From positions 1-44,029 of the IMG/VR virus record IMGVR_UViG_3300033489_000020: DNA of 44,029 nucleotides, one strand, 5' to 3'. Shown here piece after piece: positions 1-44,029 of this stretch (position 1 is its first letter; the number at the start of each line of letters is the position of its first letter). Origin of the DNA: a virus (lineage: Duplodnaviria > Caudoviricetes). The notes beneath the pieces are model-generated. The model made no database searches. It was given only the letters and a program-made list of their open reading frames with translations, and was not told the origin of the DNA. The position numbers and the translations under genes were made by a program.

Positions 1-707
1 GGCGAAAATGGTGGCGGAGGAGTTGGTTGCCATCGAGGCTGAGCGCAGGAACAGCGGCACGCTGGGAGAATACTTTGACAACGATCAGAGCAGCGCAGAC
101 GCCATCGCCGCTATCCAGGGGGCGTGATGGATAAGGACTTCTCTGACTTTGTAAGCGAAGGGCGCGGCCTGATGCAAGCGCGGGATCGCAATAGCTGGGG
201 CCTGGGCGATCTGGCCTGCGAGTTCGAGGTAACGGTAGGGCGTCCGGGCGATCCGGATGCCCTTACCCTGAGTGACTTGGCGGGCGAGTGGGACGCCAGC
301 ACTCAACGGGTGAGCGAGTGGCGCAATTGCAGCGCATTCTATCCTACGGACGCGCGTACATTTGACCTCACGTGGACACACTACAACCAAGCGCGGCGAG
401 CGGCAGGGGGTGAGCTAGACAATGCGCTTGAACTGCTGGAGATGGCCGTAAAGCTGCACATGGGAACGCGGGCATTCGAGCGATACATCAAGGGCATCTA
501 CTTCGAGGGCCCCGTCAAGATTGGCGAGTTGGCGGTGGGCCTCCAGGCGATGATACCTGGCGGAGTCAAAGAGGTGTGGTTGGTTGTAAAGAGGACAGAG
601 GTATGAACTCATACGCACACAAGGTTGACAACAACCAGAAACAGATCGTAGATGAGTTGCGCGCGCTTGGGTATACAGTCGCTAACATGTCCCGGGCCGG
701 TGCCGGA
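1..707. repeat. Left copy of imperfect terminal direct repeat (other copy 43323-44029)
   Basis: 1-111 identical to 43323-43433. The rest is colinear at offset 43322 with many, mostly synonymous, substitutions. Confidence 0.95.
124..606 (+). CDS. Hypothetical DNA-binding protein (WxLGD...HTH...LTWTHY, LmbU-like pattern), allele A
   Basis: GTGA overlap with the upstream ERF stop. ORF is conserved in the diverged second copy. Family resemblance is from motif memory only. Confidence 0.6.
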   Translation: MMDKDFSDFVSEGRGLMQARDRNSWGLGDLACEFEVTVGRPGDPDALTLSDLAGEWDASTQRVSEWRNCSAFYPTDARTFDLTWTHYNQARRAAGGELDNALELLEMAVKLHMGTRAFERYIKGIYFEGPVKIGELAVGLQAMIPGGVKEVWLVVKRTEV

Positions 708-2766: not shown

Positions 2767-3516
2767 ATGACAGAACGAACCTGGATCAAAATACACAGCG
2801 GTCTTACCAACGACCCAACGCATAGGGAACGTATGGGAATTAGAGTATGGTTGTTCGTGTGGTTAGTTGATCACGCCGACTGGGATACGGGCGTCGTCTA
2901 CAACTACAGCGACAAATGGGCGGGTGAGGAGATGGAGGTATCTCCGAGAACAATCGAGAGACAGCGCCAAGACCTAGAGGGACAAGATTACATATTCTGT
3001 CACGCTGGCTTTCAGTGCCAGCATATCAGGATCATGCGCTGGCGAAACCCGAAACTGGTGAGCCCACCCCAGATCAATGTACCGGGACTGCCTGATACTT
3101 GCGCAGAGTTGCGTACCCATAGTACGCAGAGTTGCGTACCCATCCCTACAGCAAACTGCGTACCCCTACATATAGATCACAATATATCAGAGTCTATCAC
3201 ACAGCCTGTCGTCTTTAACGAAAACGGAAACACATGGATATTCCAGATGTATCTGGACGTATTCAAGGAAGCTGTTAGTGCAGGGGAGCACGACGCTCTC
3301 CGCGACATGGCGCAGGCGTACACGCAGGCCGATGTCAAGGAGGCCATGACTATTACTCATGACAAGCACGCCCGCCAGCGCCTTACGCGTAAGGTTGCAT
3401 ACATGCGCGGCATTCTCCAGGATTGGGCGAAGAACGGCAAGGACGCGCCAACACAGCTGGCTCCGCTACAGCGCGCGCCAACACTCGAAGAGCTTGGGTA
3501 CAAGGTCGTGCGATGA
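2767..3516 (+). CDS. Phage replication initiator (N-terminal wHTH, C-terminal DnaD-like domain)
   Basis: WIKIH N-terminus; YMRGILQDW..NG DnaD-like motif; precedes DnaB; internal repeats. Confidence 0.8.
   Translation: MTERTWIKIHSGLTNDPTHRERMGIRVWLFVWLVDHADWDTGVVYNYSDKWAGEEMEVSPRTIERQRQDLEGQDYIFCHAGFQCQHIRIMRWRNPKLVSPPQINVPGLPDTCAELRTHSTQSCVPIPTANCVPLHIDHNISESITQPVVFNENGNTWIFQMYLDVFKEAVSAGEHDALRDMAQAYTQADVKEAMTITHDKHARQRLTRKVAYMRGILQDWAKNGKDAPTQLAPLQRAPTLEELGYKVVR
3102..3167 (+). repeat. Putative iterons / replication origin inside the initiator gene
   Basis: CGCAGAGTTGCGTACCCAT at 3102-3120 and 3125-3143; degenerate third copy at about 3149-3167. Confidence 0.65.
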
Positions 3517-4928
3517 GCGACAAACAACAGCTAACCCCTCATTCTGTTGAGGCTGAGCAGGCCGTTCTGGGCGCTATCCTGGTCAATCCAGGATCGCTCT
3601 ACGAGGTTAGCGACTTCCTGCGCGCAGACGACTTCTTCGTAGTGCGCAACGGATGGATCTACGATGCGATGCTCAATATCAGCGCTCGCCACGACCCGAT
3701 TGATTACCTAGTGGTGGTTTCCGAGCTTGATCGTGCCGGGAAGCTCAAGGAATGCGGCGGCGCGGCCTACATCCTCAGTCTGATAAACTCCACGCCTTCG
3801 GCGCTCAACATTGATGGTTACGGGCGCATGGTAGAGCGGACGGCAACACTCAGGCGCCTTGAACTGGCAGCTGGCGAGGTTGCAAAGGTATCTCATGCGT
3901 ACGAGATGGAATTGGAAGATGCGCTCAGCGTGGCCAGTGATGCAATCGTTAGCGTTATCGACCGCCACACAGGGACGATAGAGACGGCGCAGACGGTGCG
4001 TGACATTGCGGGCGACGTATCAATGGAGGCTGTTATCTGGGCAGAAGACCCGCGCGACGTGCGCGGCATCGCAACTGGTCTGCACGGTCTAGATACCAGC
4101 ACCGGCGGGTTTGAGGCTGGGCTGTTGTATTACCTGGCTGGCAGGCCTGGTGCTGGCAAGTCAGCGCTGATATCCAGGGCGGCGCGTGGTGTGGCAGAGA
4201 ATGACCATTGCGTCATTGTATATAGTCTAGAGATGACAAAGCGTGCAATGGTGCGCCGCATGGGGATGCAACTGTCAGGCGTAAACGGGACACAGCTCAA
4301 GCAAGGCAGGCTACCAAAGCCGGAGTTGCACAAATTCCTCCAAGCTCTCGACCAGATCGCCAAGCTGCCAATCATCATTGAGAGCCGATCCAACTTATCA
4401 ATCCTTGAGATGGAGGCCATCACGCGTAAGTATTCGCGCGACTACGACATTGGCCTGGTTGTGATCGACACGCTGAATGTGGTGCGCGATCGAGCCGATG
4501 GTCTGTATGAGAAGATGACTAACATCAGCCGCCAGGTCAAAGACTGGGCGCACTCATCGCCGTATGGCATTCTGGCTGCCGTCCAGCTATCTCGCGTCAA
4601 TGAGAAGTCAACCGACAAGCGACCAACACAATCGGCACTCAGGGACAGCGGAGCGCTTGAGCAGGACGCAGACTGGATCGGTGGGCTTCACCGCGAGTTT
4701 GCCTATGCAAAGACTCCGGAAGATCGGGCGCTGCTGGCTGACAGAGAGCATGTAGCAGAACTACTTCCGCTCAAGGTACGGGACGGCGCTTGTGAAATGG
4801 CGGCGGAGCTGTACTGGGATGCATCATGCGTTAATTTCAGCGACATGTACAAGCAAAATGTCAGCCTTGATTACGATAAGCACCCGTTTGTCCTTGGACG
4901 CGATGACGCGGGAGAGGCGTCCTTATGA
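3513..4928 (+). CDS. dnaB: Replicative DNA helicase, DnaB family
   Basis: PHSVEAEQAVLGAIL, Walker A GRPGAGKS, SLEM, QLSR, LRDSGALEQDAD. Confidence 0.95.
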   Translation: MSDKQQLTPHSVEAEQAVLGAILVNPGSLYEVSDFLRADDFFVVRNGWIYDAMLNISARHDPIDYLVVVSELDRAGKLKECGGAAYILSLINSTPSALNIDGYGRMVERTATLRRLELAAGEVAKVSHAYEMELEDALSVASDAIVSVIDRHTGTIETAQTVRDIAGDVSMEAVIWAEDPRDVRGIATGLHGLDTSTGGFEAGLLYYLAGRPGAGKSALISRAARGVAENDHCVIVYSLEMTKRAMVRRMGMQLSGVNGTQLKQGRLPKPELHKFLQALDQIAKLPIIIESRSNLSILEMEAITRKYSRDYDIGLVVIDTLNVVRDRADGLYEKMTNISRQVKDWAHSSPYGILAAVQLSRVNEKSTDKRPTQSALRDSGALEQDADWIGGLHREFAYAKTPEDRALLADREHVAELLPLKVRDGACEMAAELYWDASCVNFSDMYKQNVSLDYDKHPFVLGRDDAGEASL

Positions 4929-17313: not shown

Positions 17314-18087
17314 ATGAGCCTTCTCCCGATCGCGCGCCTATACCTGAATGGTTTTCCAAAGGCTGGTTTGCACTTCGCTGAGCAATGGGTGTCGACAGTG
17401 CTGGAGCCCGAGCTGAGCCATACCGGGAATTGGTTCGGTACGTTTAACGGAAACGGGTGGACTACCAGCCAGGGCAACCTGGAACACGTCGACGCCATGC
17501 TGGAGAGCATTAGACCTGGGTACTACGTCAAGGGCCACATGGGGTGGTCTCCAAGCCTGGCAGACAAAATCAAAACCTCTGGGGTTGGCCTGGTGTTTGT
17601 GTACCGCGACTTGCGCGATGTAGTGGTAAGCCATGCGCATCACGTGCTGAGCAATGACGATGAAAAGCTAAAGCATCCGGGGAAGGCTCTGTACAAAGCG
17701 CTCCCCACATTTGAAGATGTCCTGATAGCCTGCATTGATGGCATCGGGCCATATCCGGGCATCTTCCAACGCTGGGAGTTGTACGCGGGTTGGTTGCTTG
17801 AGGGTTGGGTTCTCAAGTTAAAGTACGAGGACATGATAAACAGCCCGCGCGCGCAAGCGGACAGGCTCGCGCGTCACCTGTACGATGGCAGACAAGACAA
17901 CATGCTCATTGACCAGATTGCGCTATTGATGGTGCAGCGCGGGCGAGAAACAAAGAAGTCAATGACATTCAGGCGCGGTAAGACAGGCGATTGGCGCAAA
18001 GAGTTTACACCACGGGTTAAGGCGGCATTCAAGACGGCGGATCCGGGGTGGCTCGACAAATTGGGGTATGCCCATGGCGATTGGTAA
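17314..18087 (+). CDS. PAPS-dependent sulfotransferase (Sulfotransfer_1-like)
   Basis: GFPKAG (5'-PSB loop), YRDLRDVVVS (3'-PB), KYEDM, FRRGKTGDWRKEFT. Confidence 0.9.
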   Translation: MSLLPIARLYLNGFPKAGLHFAEQWVSTVLEPELSHTGNWFGTFNGNGWTTSQGNLEHVDAMLESIRPGYYVKGHMGWSPSLADKIKTSGVGLVFVYRDLRDVVVSHAHHVLSNDDEKLKHPGKALYKALPTFEDVLIACIDGIGPYPGIFQRWELYAGWLLEGWVLKLKYEDMINSPRAQADRLARHLYDGRQDNMLIDQIALLMVQRGRETKKSMTFRRGKTGDWRKEFTPRVKAAFKTADPGWLDKLGYAHGDW

Positions 18088-39280: not shown

Positions 39281-39348
39281 TGCGGGGCGGCCGGTGCCGA
39301 CCTGGGCCCCATAAGCCCGGAGAGAGAGATCGACACTCTCCCCCGCTA
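39281..39348 (+). tRNA. Atypical tRNA-like element, anticodon CAT (Met/Ile2), shrunken D arm
   Basis: GCGGGG/CCCCGC acceptor; TGGGC-CCCATAA-GCCCG anticodon arm; GAGAG-ATCGACA-CTCTC T arm; no encoded CCA. Confidence 0.55.
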
Positions 39349-39699
39349 TAGGGCAGGTTCGATTCCTGCTCGTTGGCTGAGTGCTGGTGCGAAGGGAGCC
39401 AGGATCGTTACCTGGTGATATGTGTCACGGCCTATATGCGGTGACTAACTCAGGGAGACACAGCCCCGGAACCCCACCGGTTACTTGGGGAACATCGGAG
39501 GTGGCAGTGCCCGGCGCGATACATGAAGCGCAGCCGTGCAACTCGGCGCCTCTGTCTACCGGGTGGCGTTACTCCCGGATGCCAGTAACGCACTATCGAG
39601 GCAGTCCGATAGCTTATCACAAATTTGGATCTAAGAGCGATAGCATTTGGAGAGTGTCGGGGTGGCGACTGCCCCACCCCACAAGTATAGGAGGATATT

Positions 39700-40965: not shown

Positions 40966-40994
40966 TTGACGTGGCCAGCGTTGTGTGCTATTAT
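40966..40994 (+). promoter_or_regulatory. Sigma70 promoter TTGACG-N17-TATTAT with extended -10
   Basis: Consensus and spacing read directly. Confidence 0.75.
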
Positions 40995-41532: not shown

Positions 41533-41744
41533 TAACAGTGAACACGTGCCCTAATTGCGAGCACACCCTGGTTAACGATGGAGAACAACCAAACGTGGTT
41601 AGCGGCACCATGAGCACGTTAGGAAGCTGCGTAAATCCAAGTTGTGATAGCTTCGATAGCACCTTTTCGTTTGGAGAGCGGGCTATGACCAGGACGGAGT
41701 TGGACAAATACGCAGAGTTACGCGCAAGACTGGGAATTGCATGA
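41529..41744 (+). CDS. Small Zn-ribbon protein
   Basis: CPNC...CVNPSC. Confidence 0.55.
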   Translation: MITVNTCPNCEHTLVNDGEQPNVVSGTMSTLGSCVNPSCDSFDSTFSFGERAMTRTELDKYAELRARLGIA

Positions 41745-42006
41745 GCAGGTGCAGCCACATCAACACGCGGTGATGTGGCTGCATGTGCCCATGACGGGCA
41801 GATCGCAAGACCTACTATCTGGAGGCCAAATGTGCAAGGAAGCGCGGAGATTTGTGATTTGGGCTGGTGGGTATGTAGAGACGACCCGCAACCTGAGAGA
41901 CGCACTACGTAGATCGCGGATTGATGGCGGGTTGGCGGTAGAAGACGAAGGGCCACGCGGCAAGAAGCGCATGGCGGCCAGCGGTGAAGATGTTAGTAGA
42001 CGGTAG
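41737..42006 (+). CDS. Hypothetical protein
   Basis: ORF fills the operon; start uncertain. Confidence 0.4.
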   Translation: MHEQVQPHQHAVMWLHVPMTGRSQDLLSGGQMCKEARRFVIWAGGYVETTRNLRDALRRSRIDGGLAVEDEGPRGKKRMAASGEDVSRR

Positions 42007-42014
42007 CATGAAGC

Positions 42015-42080
42015 GGGGCCGTGACCGGGATCGACGCCAGATGTTATAGGCGGACGCGGGATCAACACCCGCCGGCTCCA
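42015..42080 (+). ncRNA. Mini-tmRNA: tRNA-like domain only
   Basis: GGGGCCG/CGGCTCC-A acceptor with G3.U70; stemless D-loop ending TCGA; CGCC/GGCG short P2; GAC linker; GCGGG-ATCAACA-CCCGC T arm. Confidence 0.75.
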
Positions 42081-42112
42081 TCGAGCAATGACGGCACAAG
42101 ATCGGAGAGATA

Positions 42113-42362
42113 CATGGTTGAGATGAAAAGAGGGCCACACCTAAGTAAGTGCGGATGGGCATGGGAGGATTACAGTCCAGCCGTTGGATATGAATTTATT
42201 TGCGACAATCCATCCTTTCACCCTAAAGATACCGTTACCTGTGACGAATGCCAGCTAGGAACATGGGCAAAGGATAGCGAAATTAAACAGTGTAAAATGT
42301 GTGGCTATTGGGCTCACATATTGGGCGAACATGACGTTTGTGATTTTTGTATAGAGGAGTGA
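42113..42362 (+). CDS. Cys-rich hypothetical protein (start approximate)
   Basis: Multiple CxxC; GGAG upstream of MVEMKR. Confidence 0.45.
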
Positions 42363-42600: not shown

Positions 42601-43449
42601 ATGGAACACAGTGAATCAATAGCCAACTTAGCAGCAGCCCTATCGCAATTCCAGGCCAGCGTGCCCAGCGTGCCATTCGATGGTACTAACGCATTCCTCA
42701 AGAATCGCTACGCCACACTCAAGGCGATGATCGAAACCGCGCGACCGGTACTGGCTGATAATGGCCTGTCAGTCTCGCAGATCGTTGTGAGTTACGATGG
42801 CCAGATCGGCGTAGAGACTGTGCTTATGCACTCATCCGGAGAGTGGATCAGCAATACCGCGATCCTGCCCGCCAATGATGAGAAAGGCAAGAGTGCGGCA
42901 CAGGTAGCAGGAAGCATGATCACCTATCTGCGCCGATACAGCTATGCCTCCATTTTAGGCCTGTACGCGGACGAGGACACTGACGGAAACGGGTCTCAGC
43001 AAAACGCCAAACAGACGGCACCTAAGCCGCCACAGGGCAATCAGCAAGCGACTGCTCCACAGCGACCGTATACGCCAGAGCGTTTGCGCGCCGGAATTGC
43101 CAAGCGACTTGCCGGTAAACCGCAGGACGGTGTGACGGAAGACGCCGCGCGCAAGCTGGCGATCAACTGGAAAAACATTACCGGGCAAGACAAGGCCGTC
43201 AGGCACAATGCCTGTGTGAGCATCATCGACCGCACGGTTGACAGCTTCAAGAACCTGACCATCTCGGAGGTTGAGGCGCTGACTGACTGGCTAAACGGTA
43301 ATCCGCCCATGGCGCGCGAAGAGGCGAAAATGGTGGCGGAGGAGTTGGTTGCCATCGAGGCTGAGCGCAGGAACAGCGGCACGCTGGGAGAATACTTTGA
43401 CAACGATCAGAGCAGCGCAGACGCCATCGCCGCGATCCAGGGGGCGTGA
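42601..43449 (+). CDS. erf: ERF-family single-strand annealing protein
   Basis: NAFLKNRYATL, HSSGEW, GSMITYLRRYSYASILGL..DEDTDGN. Confidence 0.92.
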   Translation: MEHSESIANLAAALSQFQASVPSVPFDGTNAFLKNRYATLKAMIETARPVLADNGLSVSQIVVSYDGQIGVETVLMHSSGEWISNTAILPANDEKGKSAAQVAGSMITYLRRYSYASILGLYADEDTDGNGSQQNAKQTAPKPPQGNQQATAPQRPYTPERLRAGIAKRLAGKPQDGVTEDAARKLAINWKNITGQDKAVRHNACVSIIDRTVDSFKNLTISEVEALTDWLNGNPPMAREEAKMVAEELVAIEAERRNSGTLGEYFDNDQSSADAIAAIQGA

Positions 43450-43928
43450 TGGATAAGGACTTCTCCGACTTTGTTGACGAAGGTCGCGAGCTGATGCAGG
43501 CGAGGGATCGTAATAGCTGGCTCTTGGGCGATCTGGCTTGTGAGTTTGAGATCGAAATAGGAAGGCCATCTGATGCCGACGCCCCAACCTTGGGAGACCT
43601 GGCGCGTGAATGGGACGCCAGTACACAGCGCGTGAGTGAGTGGCGGAATTGCAGTGCCTTTTATCCTACGGACGCGCGTAGATTTGATCTCACGTGGACA
43701 CACTACAACCGGGCGCGGCGTGCGGCTGATGGTGAGATTGACAATGCGCTGGAGCTGCTGGAGATGGCTGTTAGGTTACACATGGGCACGCGGGCATTCG
43801 AGCGATACATCAAGGGCATCTACTTTGAGGGCCCCGTCAAGATTGGCGAGTTGGCGGTAGGCCTCCAGGCGATGATACCCGGAGGAGTCAAAGATGTGTG
43901 GTTGGTTGTAAAGAGGAACGAGGTATGA
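43446..43928 (+). CDS. Hypothetical DNA-binding protein, allele B of 124-606
   Basis: Same length (160 aa); near-identical protein. Confidence 0.6.
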   Translation: MMDKDFSDFVDEGRELMQARDRNSWLLGDLACEFEIEIGRPSDADAPTLGDLAREWDASTQRVSEWRNCSAFYPTDARRFDLTWTHYNRARRAADGEIDNALELLEMAVRLHMGTRAFERYIKGIYFEGPVKIGELAVGLQAMIPGGVKDVWLVVKRNEV

Positions 43929-44029
43929 ACTCATACGCACACAAGGTTGACAACAACCAGAAACAGATCGTGGATGAGTTGCGCGCGCTTGGCTACACAG
44001 TTGCCAACCTGTCGCGCGCTGGGGCGGGT
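43925..44029 (+). CDS. VRR-NUC nuclease, partial second copy cut by the window end
   Basis: MNSYAHKVDNNQKQIVDELRALGYTVANLSRAGAG. Confidence 0.8.
   Translation, partial: MNSYAHKVDNNQKQIVDELRALGYTVANLSRAGAG

Follow-up and report, generated by a model that had tools for sequence, protein, structure and literature searches.

Can a phage carry a transfer-messenger RNA (tmRNA) gene of which only a tRNA-like domain (TLD) is left, and what would such an RNA do in the host? The question is raised by an element of IMG/VR virus record IMGVR_UViG_3300033489_000020 (Caudoviricetes), all 44,029 nucleotides of which were analysed and are called the window below. The record belongs to a tailed phage whose genes, all on the plus strand, include those for a terminase, portal and tail proteins, DnaB, a helicase loader and methyltransferases. 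An initial annotation, made from the letters alone, had described the element as a phage-encoded mini-tmRNA, and every segment that it listed lies at 42015-42080 on the plus strand, exact to the base (Table 1). The RNA is 66 nt long as encoded and 69 nt with CCA added after transcription.

The window's RNA has a 7-bp acceptor stem with G3·U70 and A73, a stemless D-loop ending in UCGA, a P2 helix, a GAC linker and a T arm, and no anticodon arm. An Infernal-type check with the tmRNA model, suggested in the initial annotation, came out in its favour: RF00023 matches end to end over 42015-42083 (48.6 bits against a gathering score of 47; E 2.5e-17) and is the sole Rfam match over its gathering score in the whole window. 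The RNA has all the TLD elements of a standard ssrA tmRNA; it differs in the absence of pseudoknots, resume codon and tag reading frame, 316 model positions being replaced by 10 bases. Because those positions of the mRNA-like domain are replaced in this way, the RNA is not filed as a standard tmRNA, and since the message part is absent, it cannot tag. P2 with its 10-nt loop stands where the pseudoknots, the tag frame and the inner hairpin of the mycobacteriophage DS6A type would be. The consensus T-loop starts with U54; this one has A54 and A60 instead. ARAGORN, the other program suggested for the check, reported no gene at 42015-42080 when run on the window. Minimum-energy folding predicts a TLD shape, with acceptor, P2 and T arms, at an unexceptional energy (z -1.14; 25 of 200 shuffles fold equally well); the case therefore stands on motif and pairing, not on stability. 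A TLD descriptor matched once in the window and in none of 300 shuffled windows. The TLD-only feature at 42015-42080 is genuine.

Table 1. Coordinates of the mini-tmRNA, its parts and its neighbours in the window
Feature	Position	Strand	Details
TLD-only mini-tmRNA gene	42015..42080	+	66 nt; RF00023 match, fold, conservation in related phage L280
Acceptor stem, 5' strand	42015..42021	+	G3 = 42017; 7/7 pairs with 42073-42079
Stemless D-loop with GG and terminal UCGA	42022..42034	+	aligned to RF00023
P2 helix, 4 bp, with variable 10-nt loop	42035..42052	+	stem strands 42035-42038/42049-42052
GAC linker and T arm	42053..42072	+	compensatory pair 42057/42071 in L280; A54-A60 covariation
GAC linker alone	42053-42055	+	exact sequence check
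T stem	42056-42060/42068-42072	+	exact sequence check
T-loop	42061-42067	+	first base A; A54 = 42061, A60 = 42067
Acceptor stem, 3' strand, and discriminator	42073..42080	+	U70 = 42077, A73 = 42080
Upstream ORF, no family found	41737..42006	+	stop codon 8 nt before the RNA
Downstream Cys-rich ORF	42114..42362	+	ATG 42114 behind purine-rich ribosome-binding site; missing at this position in L280
Erf-family single-strand annealing protein	42610..43449	+	PF04404, E 4e-26; marks recombination/replication region
Candidate sigma-70-type promoter	40966..40994	+	10/12, extended -10; 1 kb upstream; tentative

The element is not a tRNA such as tRNA-Ala (RF00005): ARAGORN finds none, tmRNA comes out on top within its Rfam clan (from each clan cmscan retains a single best match), and the cloverleaf with D stem and anticodon arm is absent. 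A 113-aa ORF opening at GTG 42021, which would make the element overlap a coding sequence, was also rejected. The RNA is kept in L280 while the next gene changes, and in a strain contig from sequencing run X1 a one-base insertion behind 42098 would shift this frame and spare the gene that starts at ATG 42114.

L280, a metagenome contig of a related phage, carries a relative of the mini-tmRNA identical at 56 of 65 positions. Of its nine changes, the D-loop and the P2 loop have three each and T-loop position 57 has one; the other two turn a T-stem C-G pair into U-A (42057/42071). None breaks a pair, and the T-stem change is compensatory. Beyond the RNA the 3' flank of L280 diverges from the window, its next gene being a homologue (63% identical) of the window's second downstream gene, and a RecT family gene (PF03837) is found where the window has Erf. 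Judged from these comparisons, the mini-tmRNA is under selection.

The sequencing runs that contain this DNA are soil metagenomes of three studies, one of them possibly the source; run X1 may be the window's source sample, and the strain contigs of X3 and X4, soil runs of two further studies, keep the mini-tmRNA. Strain contigs from four runs show changes in the D-loop (42022, 42026), in the P2 loop (42040, 42041, 42046) and at 42018 in the acceptor stem, where G4 becomes C; the partner of that base, 42076, falls in the unlisted end of the alignment, and C4-G69 pairs occur in 4 of 113 class members. In X1, X2 and X3 the contigs cease to resemble the window at 42001-42004 or 42081, and their flanks are unlike. 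From 42006 onward some strain contigs of X2 and X4, which match the upstream gene as far as its stop codon, have a different sequence with a GGGG-type acceptor-like stretch 7 nt later and ACGA replacing UCGA (30 letters seen), possibly a divergent allele in the mini-tmRNA slot. IMG/VR searches with the two ORFs flanking the mini-tmRNA found no relative, and at 80 IMG/VR loci with Erf neighbours no TLD was found by the descriptor, which likewise missed the DS6A RNA with its CAC linker.

The contig ends (window 1-691 and 43323-44013) are two versions of one stretch, with an overlap of 691 bp (88% identity); this points to a full turn of a circularly permuted genome assembled from two strains. 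Erf follows the mini-tmRNA at 0.5 kb, and the helicase loader and DnaB genes also lie downstream on the same strand. It is this context, together with one sigma-70-like site, that places the RNA in an early operon, as the initial annotation had it. The site (Table 1) could tentatively be taken to drive a transcript holding the mini-tmRNA; the promoter scan of the window was not above chance (3 found, 5.2 expected). DnaB has its best named matches in Anaerolineae/Chloroflexota (37-38%), and the terminase matched an Acidobacteria MAG (42%) and, among the 401 genomes from the class to which Anaerolineae MAG G001 belongs, a single one (38%). Because the terminase fails to confirm the signal of DnaB, an Anaerolineae/Chloroflexota host stays tentative.

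The same setting bears on whether the element is merely a decaying ssrA remnant or attachment site, a reading that the initial annotation had set against its own proposal. An excisionase-type HTH gene lies 1 kb upstream of the mini-tmRNA, one of 137 flanking ORFs scanned around other copies of the class encodes an integrase, and an integrase could be missing from the record, given a CheckV completeness of 57%. On the other side, the six frames of the record, which may be incomplete, contain no tyrosine integrase (PF00589) and no serine recombinase (PF07508), and the overlap of the ends hints at a full genome turn. Both halves of the TLD are present, paired and joined by a closed helix, and L280 not only keeps the RNA but shows a compensatory change in it. 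Moreover, the element is not a near-identical piece of a host ssrA as far as the candidate class shows: P2 and the T-loop differ from those of all 31 parsed tmRNAs of the candidate host class, itself a tentative assignment. The remnant reading is already largely refuted and barely credible.

Other features of this phage are recorded here in their own right. A sulfotransferase-domain gene (PF00685, E 8e-15) lies at 17314-18087 (+), just upstream of the portal gene, and there are three DNA methyltransferase genes. A tRNA-like element without a D arm occupies 39297-39378 (+) in a 500-bp ORF-poor stretch; it has an acceptor-like helix, an anticodon-like arm (CAU, 7-nt loop), a long variable arm and a canonical T arm, matches tRNA-Sec weakly (26.6 bits, E 0.005; fold z -1.94) and is missed by ARAGORN. 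A second T-arm-like hairpin occurs near 39535-39550.

The nearest known RNA is that of Mycobacterium phage DS6A, located here at L263 8479-8558 (80 nt; tmRNA Website tmID 11587, Phage__Mycobacterium.9), where it scores 43.2 bits with RF00023, less than the 48.6 bits of the window's RNA. Both are free-standing, intergenic phage genes for a complete one-piece TLD and little else, with a closed P2, no tag frame and no encoded CCA; both have G3·U70, A73 and a UCGA D-loop, and their acceptor stems are identical. The DS6A RNA differs in that its P2 encloses an A-rich internal loop and a small hairpin and that its T-loop is of the standard U54/U60 kind, whereas the window's RNA has 66 nt, A54/A60 and no inner hairpin; DS6A also has an integrase about 10 kb away, and none was found in the window. 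For the inhibition of tmRNA by TLD-only molecules, PMC4131195 and PMC11915505 both cite Mao et al. 2009. The DS6A tmRNA has been classed as 'TLD only', and a similar molecule, chargeable or not, is described as strongly inhibiting tmRNA, perhaps by titrating SmpB (PMC4131195); the DS6A form is also stated to inhibit endogenous tmRNA in Escherichia coli (PMC11915505). The SmpB decoy proposed in the initial annotation agrees with that published suggestion (PMC4131195), so both the TLD-only kind and the titration idea are already in print. With no inner hairpin and an unusual T-loop in the window's copy, the DS6A results may not carry over to it.

Message-less tmRNAs occur outside phages as well: tmRNAs without a coding sequence are reported from jakobid and oomycete mitochondria, and genes of about 65 nt from Mallomonadaceae plastids (PMC11915505). 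They share size class and message loss with the window's RNA, but they are the organelle's own, while the window's gene would act beside a full-length host tmRNA. A TLD of 25+34 nt joined by UUCG has been crystallised with SmpB (PDB 2CZJ; PMC3985003); it likewise connects the 5' and 3' halves through a short loop and is nearly equal in length, but is an engineered construct, whereas the window's RNA comes from a natural gene and departs from the standard T-loop.

Among cultured phages BLASTN found partial matches only. Bordetella phage PHB04 (L261) and Tunturi_4 were rejected as TLD-only relatives, both RNAs being permuted full tmRNAs. PHB04 has an unannotated permuted tmRNA and unannotated tRNAs, and the acidobacterial phage Tunturi_4 (L262) has a gene annotated as an RF-1-domain release factor and, immediately behind it, an unannotated permuted tmRNA (1120-1467 and 1472-1881; 79 bits). 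Since the Tunturi_4 tmRNA is permuted and full, its adjoining release-factor gene is no evidence for the window's RNA. The phage tmRNAs treated in the relevant part of PMC9004378 are full two-piece molecules and have no bearing on the TLD-only form. A literature search covering few subscription journals found no account of the class as widespread, nor of the A54/A60 form.

Pattern searches indicate how widespread the class is. Two IMG/VR scans gave 59 loci and, from 21 of 64 parts of the data, 120 loci; with the loose pattern, about 380 matching IMG/VR stretches are estimated. An acceptor/T-stem filter passed 141 of 159 parsed matches, or 107 distinct sequences including the window's, 77 of which are 78-80 nt long. 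RF00023 matched in TLD-only form above its cut-off at 18 of 20 chosen loci, several of them in tRNA arrays. False pattern matches numbered 18/159, 4/5, 19/24 and 54/120 in separate scans. The 120-locus scan, in which no base 3' of the T arm was prescribed, left 105 passing loci and 81 distinct copies: G3·U70 is present in 81/81 and A73 in 81/81, and the D-loop, the SmpB-contact region of tmRNA, has its GG in 78 of 81. CCA is encoded in 24 and absent in 57 of these copies. The initial annotation was right that the window's RNA has no CCA after A73 (42080), but this is not special, being equally true of DS6A and, in the candidate host class, of 21 of the 31 full-length tmRNAs that were parsed.

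Homologues with covariation, which the initial annotation had proposed to look for in viromes, were found. The covariation set comprised 113 distinct copies, the 3' end of one probable full tmRNA having been dropped. Of the 339 cells for P2 pairs 2-4, 325 keep the pairing, whereas 2000 shuffles gave a mean of 154 and a maximum of 184, related sequences not being independent. P2 pairing was unfiltered; acceptor and T pairing doubled as selection filters, and acceptor pairs 5-6 and T pairs 1-2 show all four Watson-Crick types across the class. The match to RF00023, this covariation and the relative in L280 together uphold the identification as a phage-encoded TLD-only tmRNA, and on these grounds the window's RNA is a genuine, conserved member of the DS6A type.

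Around the other copies, 137 of 273 flanking ORFs were scanned and proved to be mixed phage genes, among them several for terminase, portal or capsid proteins; they contained no conserved partner gene and no member of the SmpB or release-factor families. In six phages (L010, L015, L029, L035, L048 and L051) the TLD-only RNA lies directly upstream of the portal gene, and in three of these also immediately after the terminase gene; the portal-upstream copies mean that the class is not confined to early operons. Another copy (L017) lies 1.4 kb from a ROOL RNA (RF03087, 333 bits; 3443-4045, minus strand), with tRNAs between.

The position of the RNA also allows a reading as a cis-acting processing signal, an RNase P/RNase Z site that splits a polycistronic mRNA and leaves the freed RNA without a job. 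The mini-tmRNA lies 8 nt past one stop codon and 33 nt ahead of the next start, no promoter or terminator of its own was found in the window, and other copies sit between terminase and portal genes. Processing does not require UCGA, GAC or G3·U70, however, and the D-loop GG and U70 (81/81) are kept though the scan did not demand them, which makes this a very unlikely explanation.

A scan of GTDB gave 120 loci, 66 of them passing. Of these, 31 are 81 nt or shorter, and 35 are 82-88 nt long and resemble the 3' ends of full-length tmRNA; one such match that was checked (L322) is a 390-nt full tmRNA. In a MAG labelled Saccharibacteria (L329 3324-3393, G407:C12), smpB lies about 580 bp away from a TLD-only tmRNA of 70 nt that encodes its CCA; a full-length or permuted tmRNA was not found in this incomplete MAG, and the gene is possibly a cellular message-less tmRNA. 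Three other MAGs so labelled (L308, L346 and L364, 4001-4062) hold a 62-nt TLD-only gene with CCA and also have smpB and a complete tmRNA about 390 nt long.

Within the class the window's copy belongs to a short subtype. The main subtype of 75-81 nt, which includes DS6A, was defined in this analysis by the A-rich internal loop and small hairpin inside P2, present by a crude rule in 63 of 74 long copies; the window's copy lacks this hairpin. A complete scan for hairpin-less forms gave 15 loci, 13 of them passing, of 56-69 nt and all with U54/U60. Set against the estimate of about 380, short copies would make up a few per cent of the class. Searches for A54 recovered true TLD-only RNAs in L267, L272, L280, L285, L291 and L293/L294, and an unconstrained scan added L342. 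The initial annotation had remarked that the T-loop begins ATC rather than TTC; this holds, and it is more than a defect, for A54 covaries with A60. Indeed, A60 is found in 7 of 7 A54 copies, the window's included, and in 0 of 108 copies without A54 (L293/L294 were left out of the count, as their pattern forced A60). The A54/A60 copies form four sequence groups. In the candidate host class, the parsed full-length tmRNAs (30 with the highest scores out of 110, and one more) show U54/U60 in 31 of 31 cases and A54/A60 in none. A54 was also rejected as a host trait: only one of the 401 genomes from the class that includes G001 contains its pattern, and that match has no 5' half. The A54/A60 T-loop is best read as an apparent alternative elbow rather than decay. 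Eukaryotic initiator tRNA, whose elbow is described as having A20, A54 and A60 (PMC10602860), likewise combines A54 and A60 in the T-loop; the RNA is unrelated and only the two bases match, and the parallel may serve as a lead only. What appears to be new here is the combination of a hairpin-less minimal form with a covarying A54/A60 T-loop.

Such a loop could tune recognition if the RNA were a decoy for anti-phage systems that sense or cut tmRNA or tRNA, such as CoCoNuT with its SmpB-like domain or tRNA-cutting toxins. A54/A60 is indeed found in phage-type copies and in none of the 31 host-class tmRNAs, and many copies of the class lie in phage tRNA arrays. The window's RNA, however, is without an anticodon loop, where nucleases usually cut; the alanine identity pair could be dispensed with in a decoy, and no defence or anti-defence gene family lies beside the mini-tmRNA. 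CoCoNuTs are predicted, and only predicted, to bind tmRNA by an SmpB-like fold (PMC11090510), and t(m)RNA fragments are reported to act in the anti-CRISPR AcrIIIA1 (PMC11662646). Taken together, these points leave the defence decoy unlikely.

The main reading, given a probability of roughly one half, is that the RNA is released from an early transcript, is given CCA and alanine by host enzymes, and becomes a rival of host tmRNA for stalled ribosomes and SmpB, which would lower SsrA tagging. It would be transcribed within the co-oriented run of early genes; RNase P would cut at 42015, 3' trimming would halt at A 42080, and the CCA-adding enzyme would finish the end. AlaRS would then charge the RNA through G3·U70, and SmpB would bind at the elbow formed by D-loop, P2 and GAC. 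The resulting Ala-RNA·SmpB·EF-Tu would draw SmpB off tmRNA and could fill empty A sites; no resume codon is supplied, and therefore no SsrA tag would be made. The likely benefit to the phage is that, under host defences that harm mRNA or tRNA, its proteins would escape being tagged and degraded. The six frames of the record encode no SmpB, which fits this reading. These steps have published counterparts: G3·U70 is the AlaRS determinant and the deformed D arm of the TLD is bound by SmpB (PMC3985003, PMC8012679), a 4-bp P2 with a loop suffices for SmpB binding in the crystallised 63-nt TLD construct (PMC3985003), and Ala-TLD·SmpB·EF-Tu enters empty A sites and takes the peptide, after which the message gives tag and stop (PMC3985003, PMC8012679). 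By its sequence, the window's RNA holds all the parts that appear to be needed up to peptide transfer and none of those after it.

The invariance of G3·U70 and A73 (81/81) suggests that charging matters, since a passive sponge would not need it. Because inhibition is reported to work whether the molecule is chargeable or not (PMC4131195), pure competition for SmpB leaves the invariant G3·U70 unexplained, and the invariance favours a role inside the ribosome. Phage lambda-immP22 is reported to require active trans-translation (PMC2481249); a plain block would therefore not evidently serve a phage, and blocked rescue without ribosome release could hurt the phage itself. Nor does any neighbouring gene point to translation, among the 137 of 273 flanking ORFs scanned around other copies.

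The invariant alanine identity pair keeps alive a tentative second reading, the main rival, that the RNA carries out rescue without tagging. The alanylated RNA with SmpB and EF-Tu would enter non-stop ribosomes, take the nascent chain and eject the broken mRNA; the chain would leave by drop-off and Pth or through ArfB with one alanine, or repeated entries would give a short alanine tail, and the phage would free ribosomes without losing proteins to the SsrA tag. Apart from the invariant acceptor features, it is the TLD together with SmpB that goes into the A site and receives the peptide (PMC3985003, PMC8012679), and some mitochondria and plastids are reported to have kept message-less tmRNAs along with SmpB (PMC11915505). 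Against it, the sole reported experiment on such a molecule, as cited by PMC4131195 and by PMC11915505, showed tmRNA inhibition. Release also needs another factor where there is no stop codon, and none was found among the 137 flanking ORFs or the window's ORFs. Competition and tag-free rescue are not mutually exclusive.

A bolder proposal, and a rather doubtful one, is that phages widely hijack trans-translation: a charged message-less tmRNA would free ribosomes untagged or add alanine tails, the 66-nt copy would be its natural minimal form, and A54/A60 would be a recurrent rebuilding of the elbow that escapes T54 methylation or host enzymes reading the T-loop. ARAGORN misses the window's RNA, and the class therefore goes unannotated. 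If it is true that these RNAs suppress or bypass SsrA tagging, they would amount to an RNA-only phage control of bacterial ribosome quality control, far commoner than the single published case implies. Two features of the window's copy are ready for testing as nature supplies them: the minimal form, which has no inner hairpin, and the A54/A60 T-loop. Trans-translation is a drug target, and a natural 69-nt inhibitor, if that is what this RNA is, would be useful as a tool.
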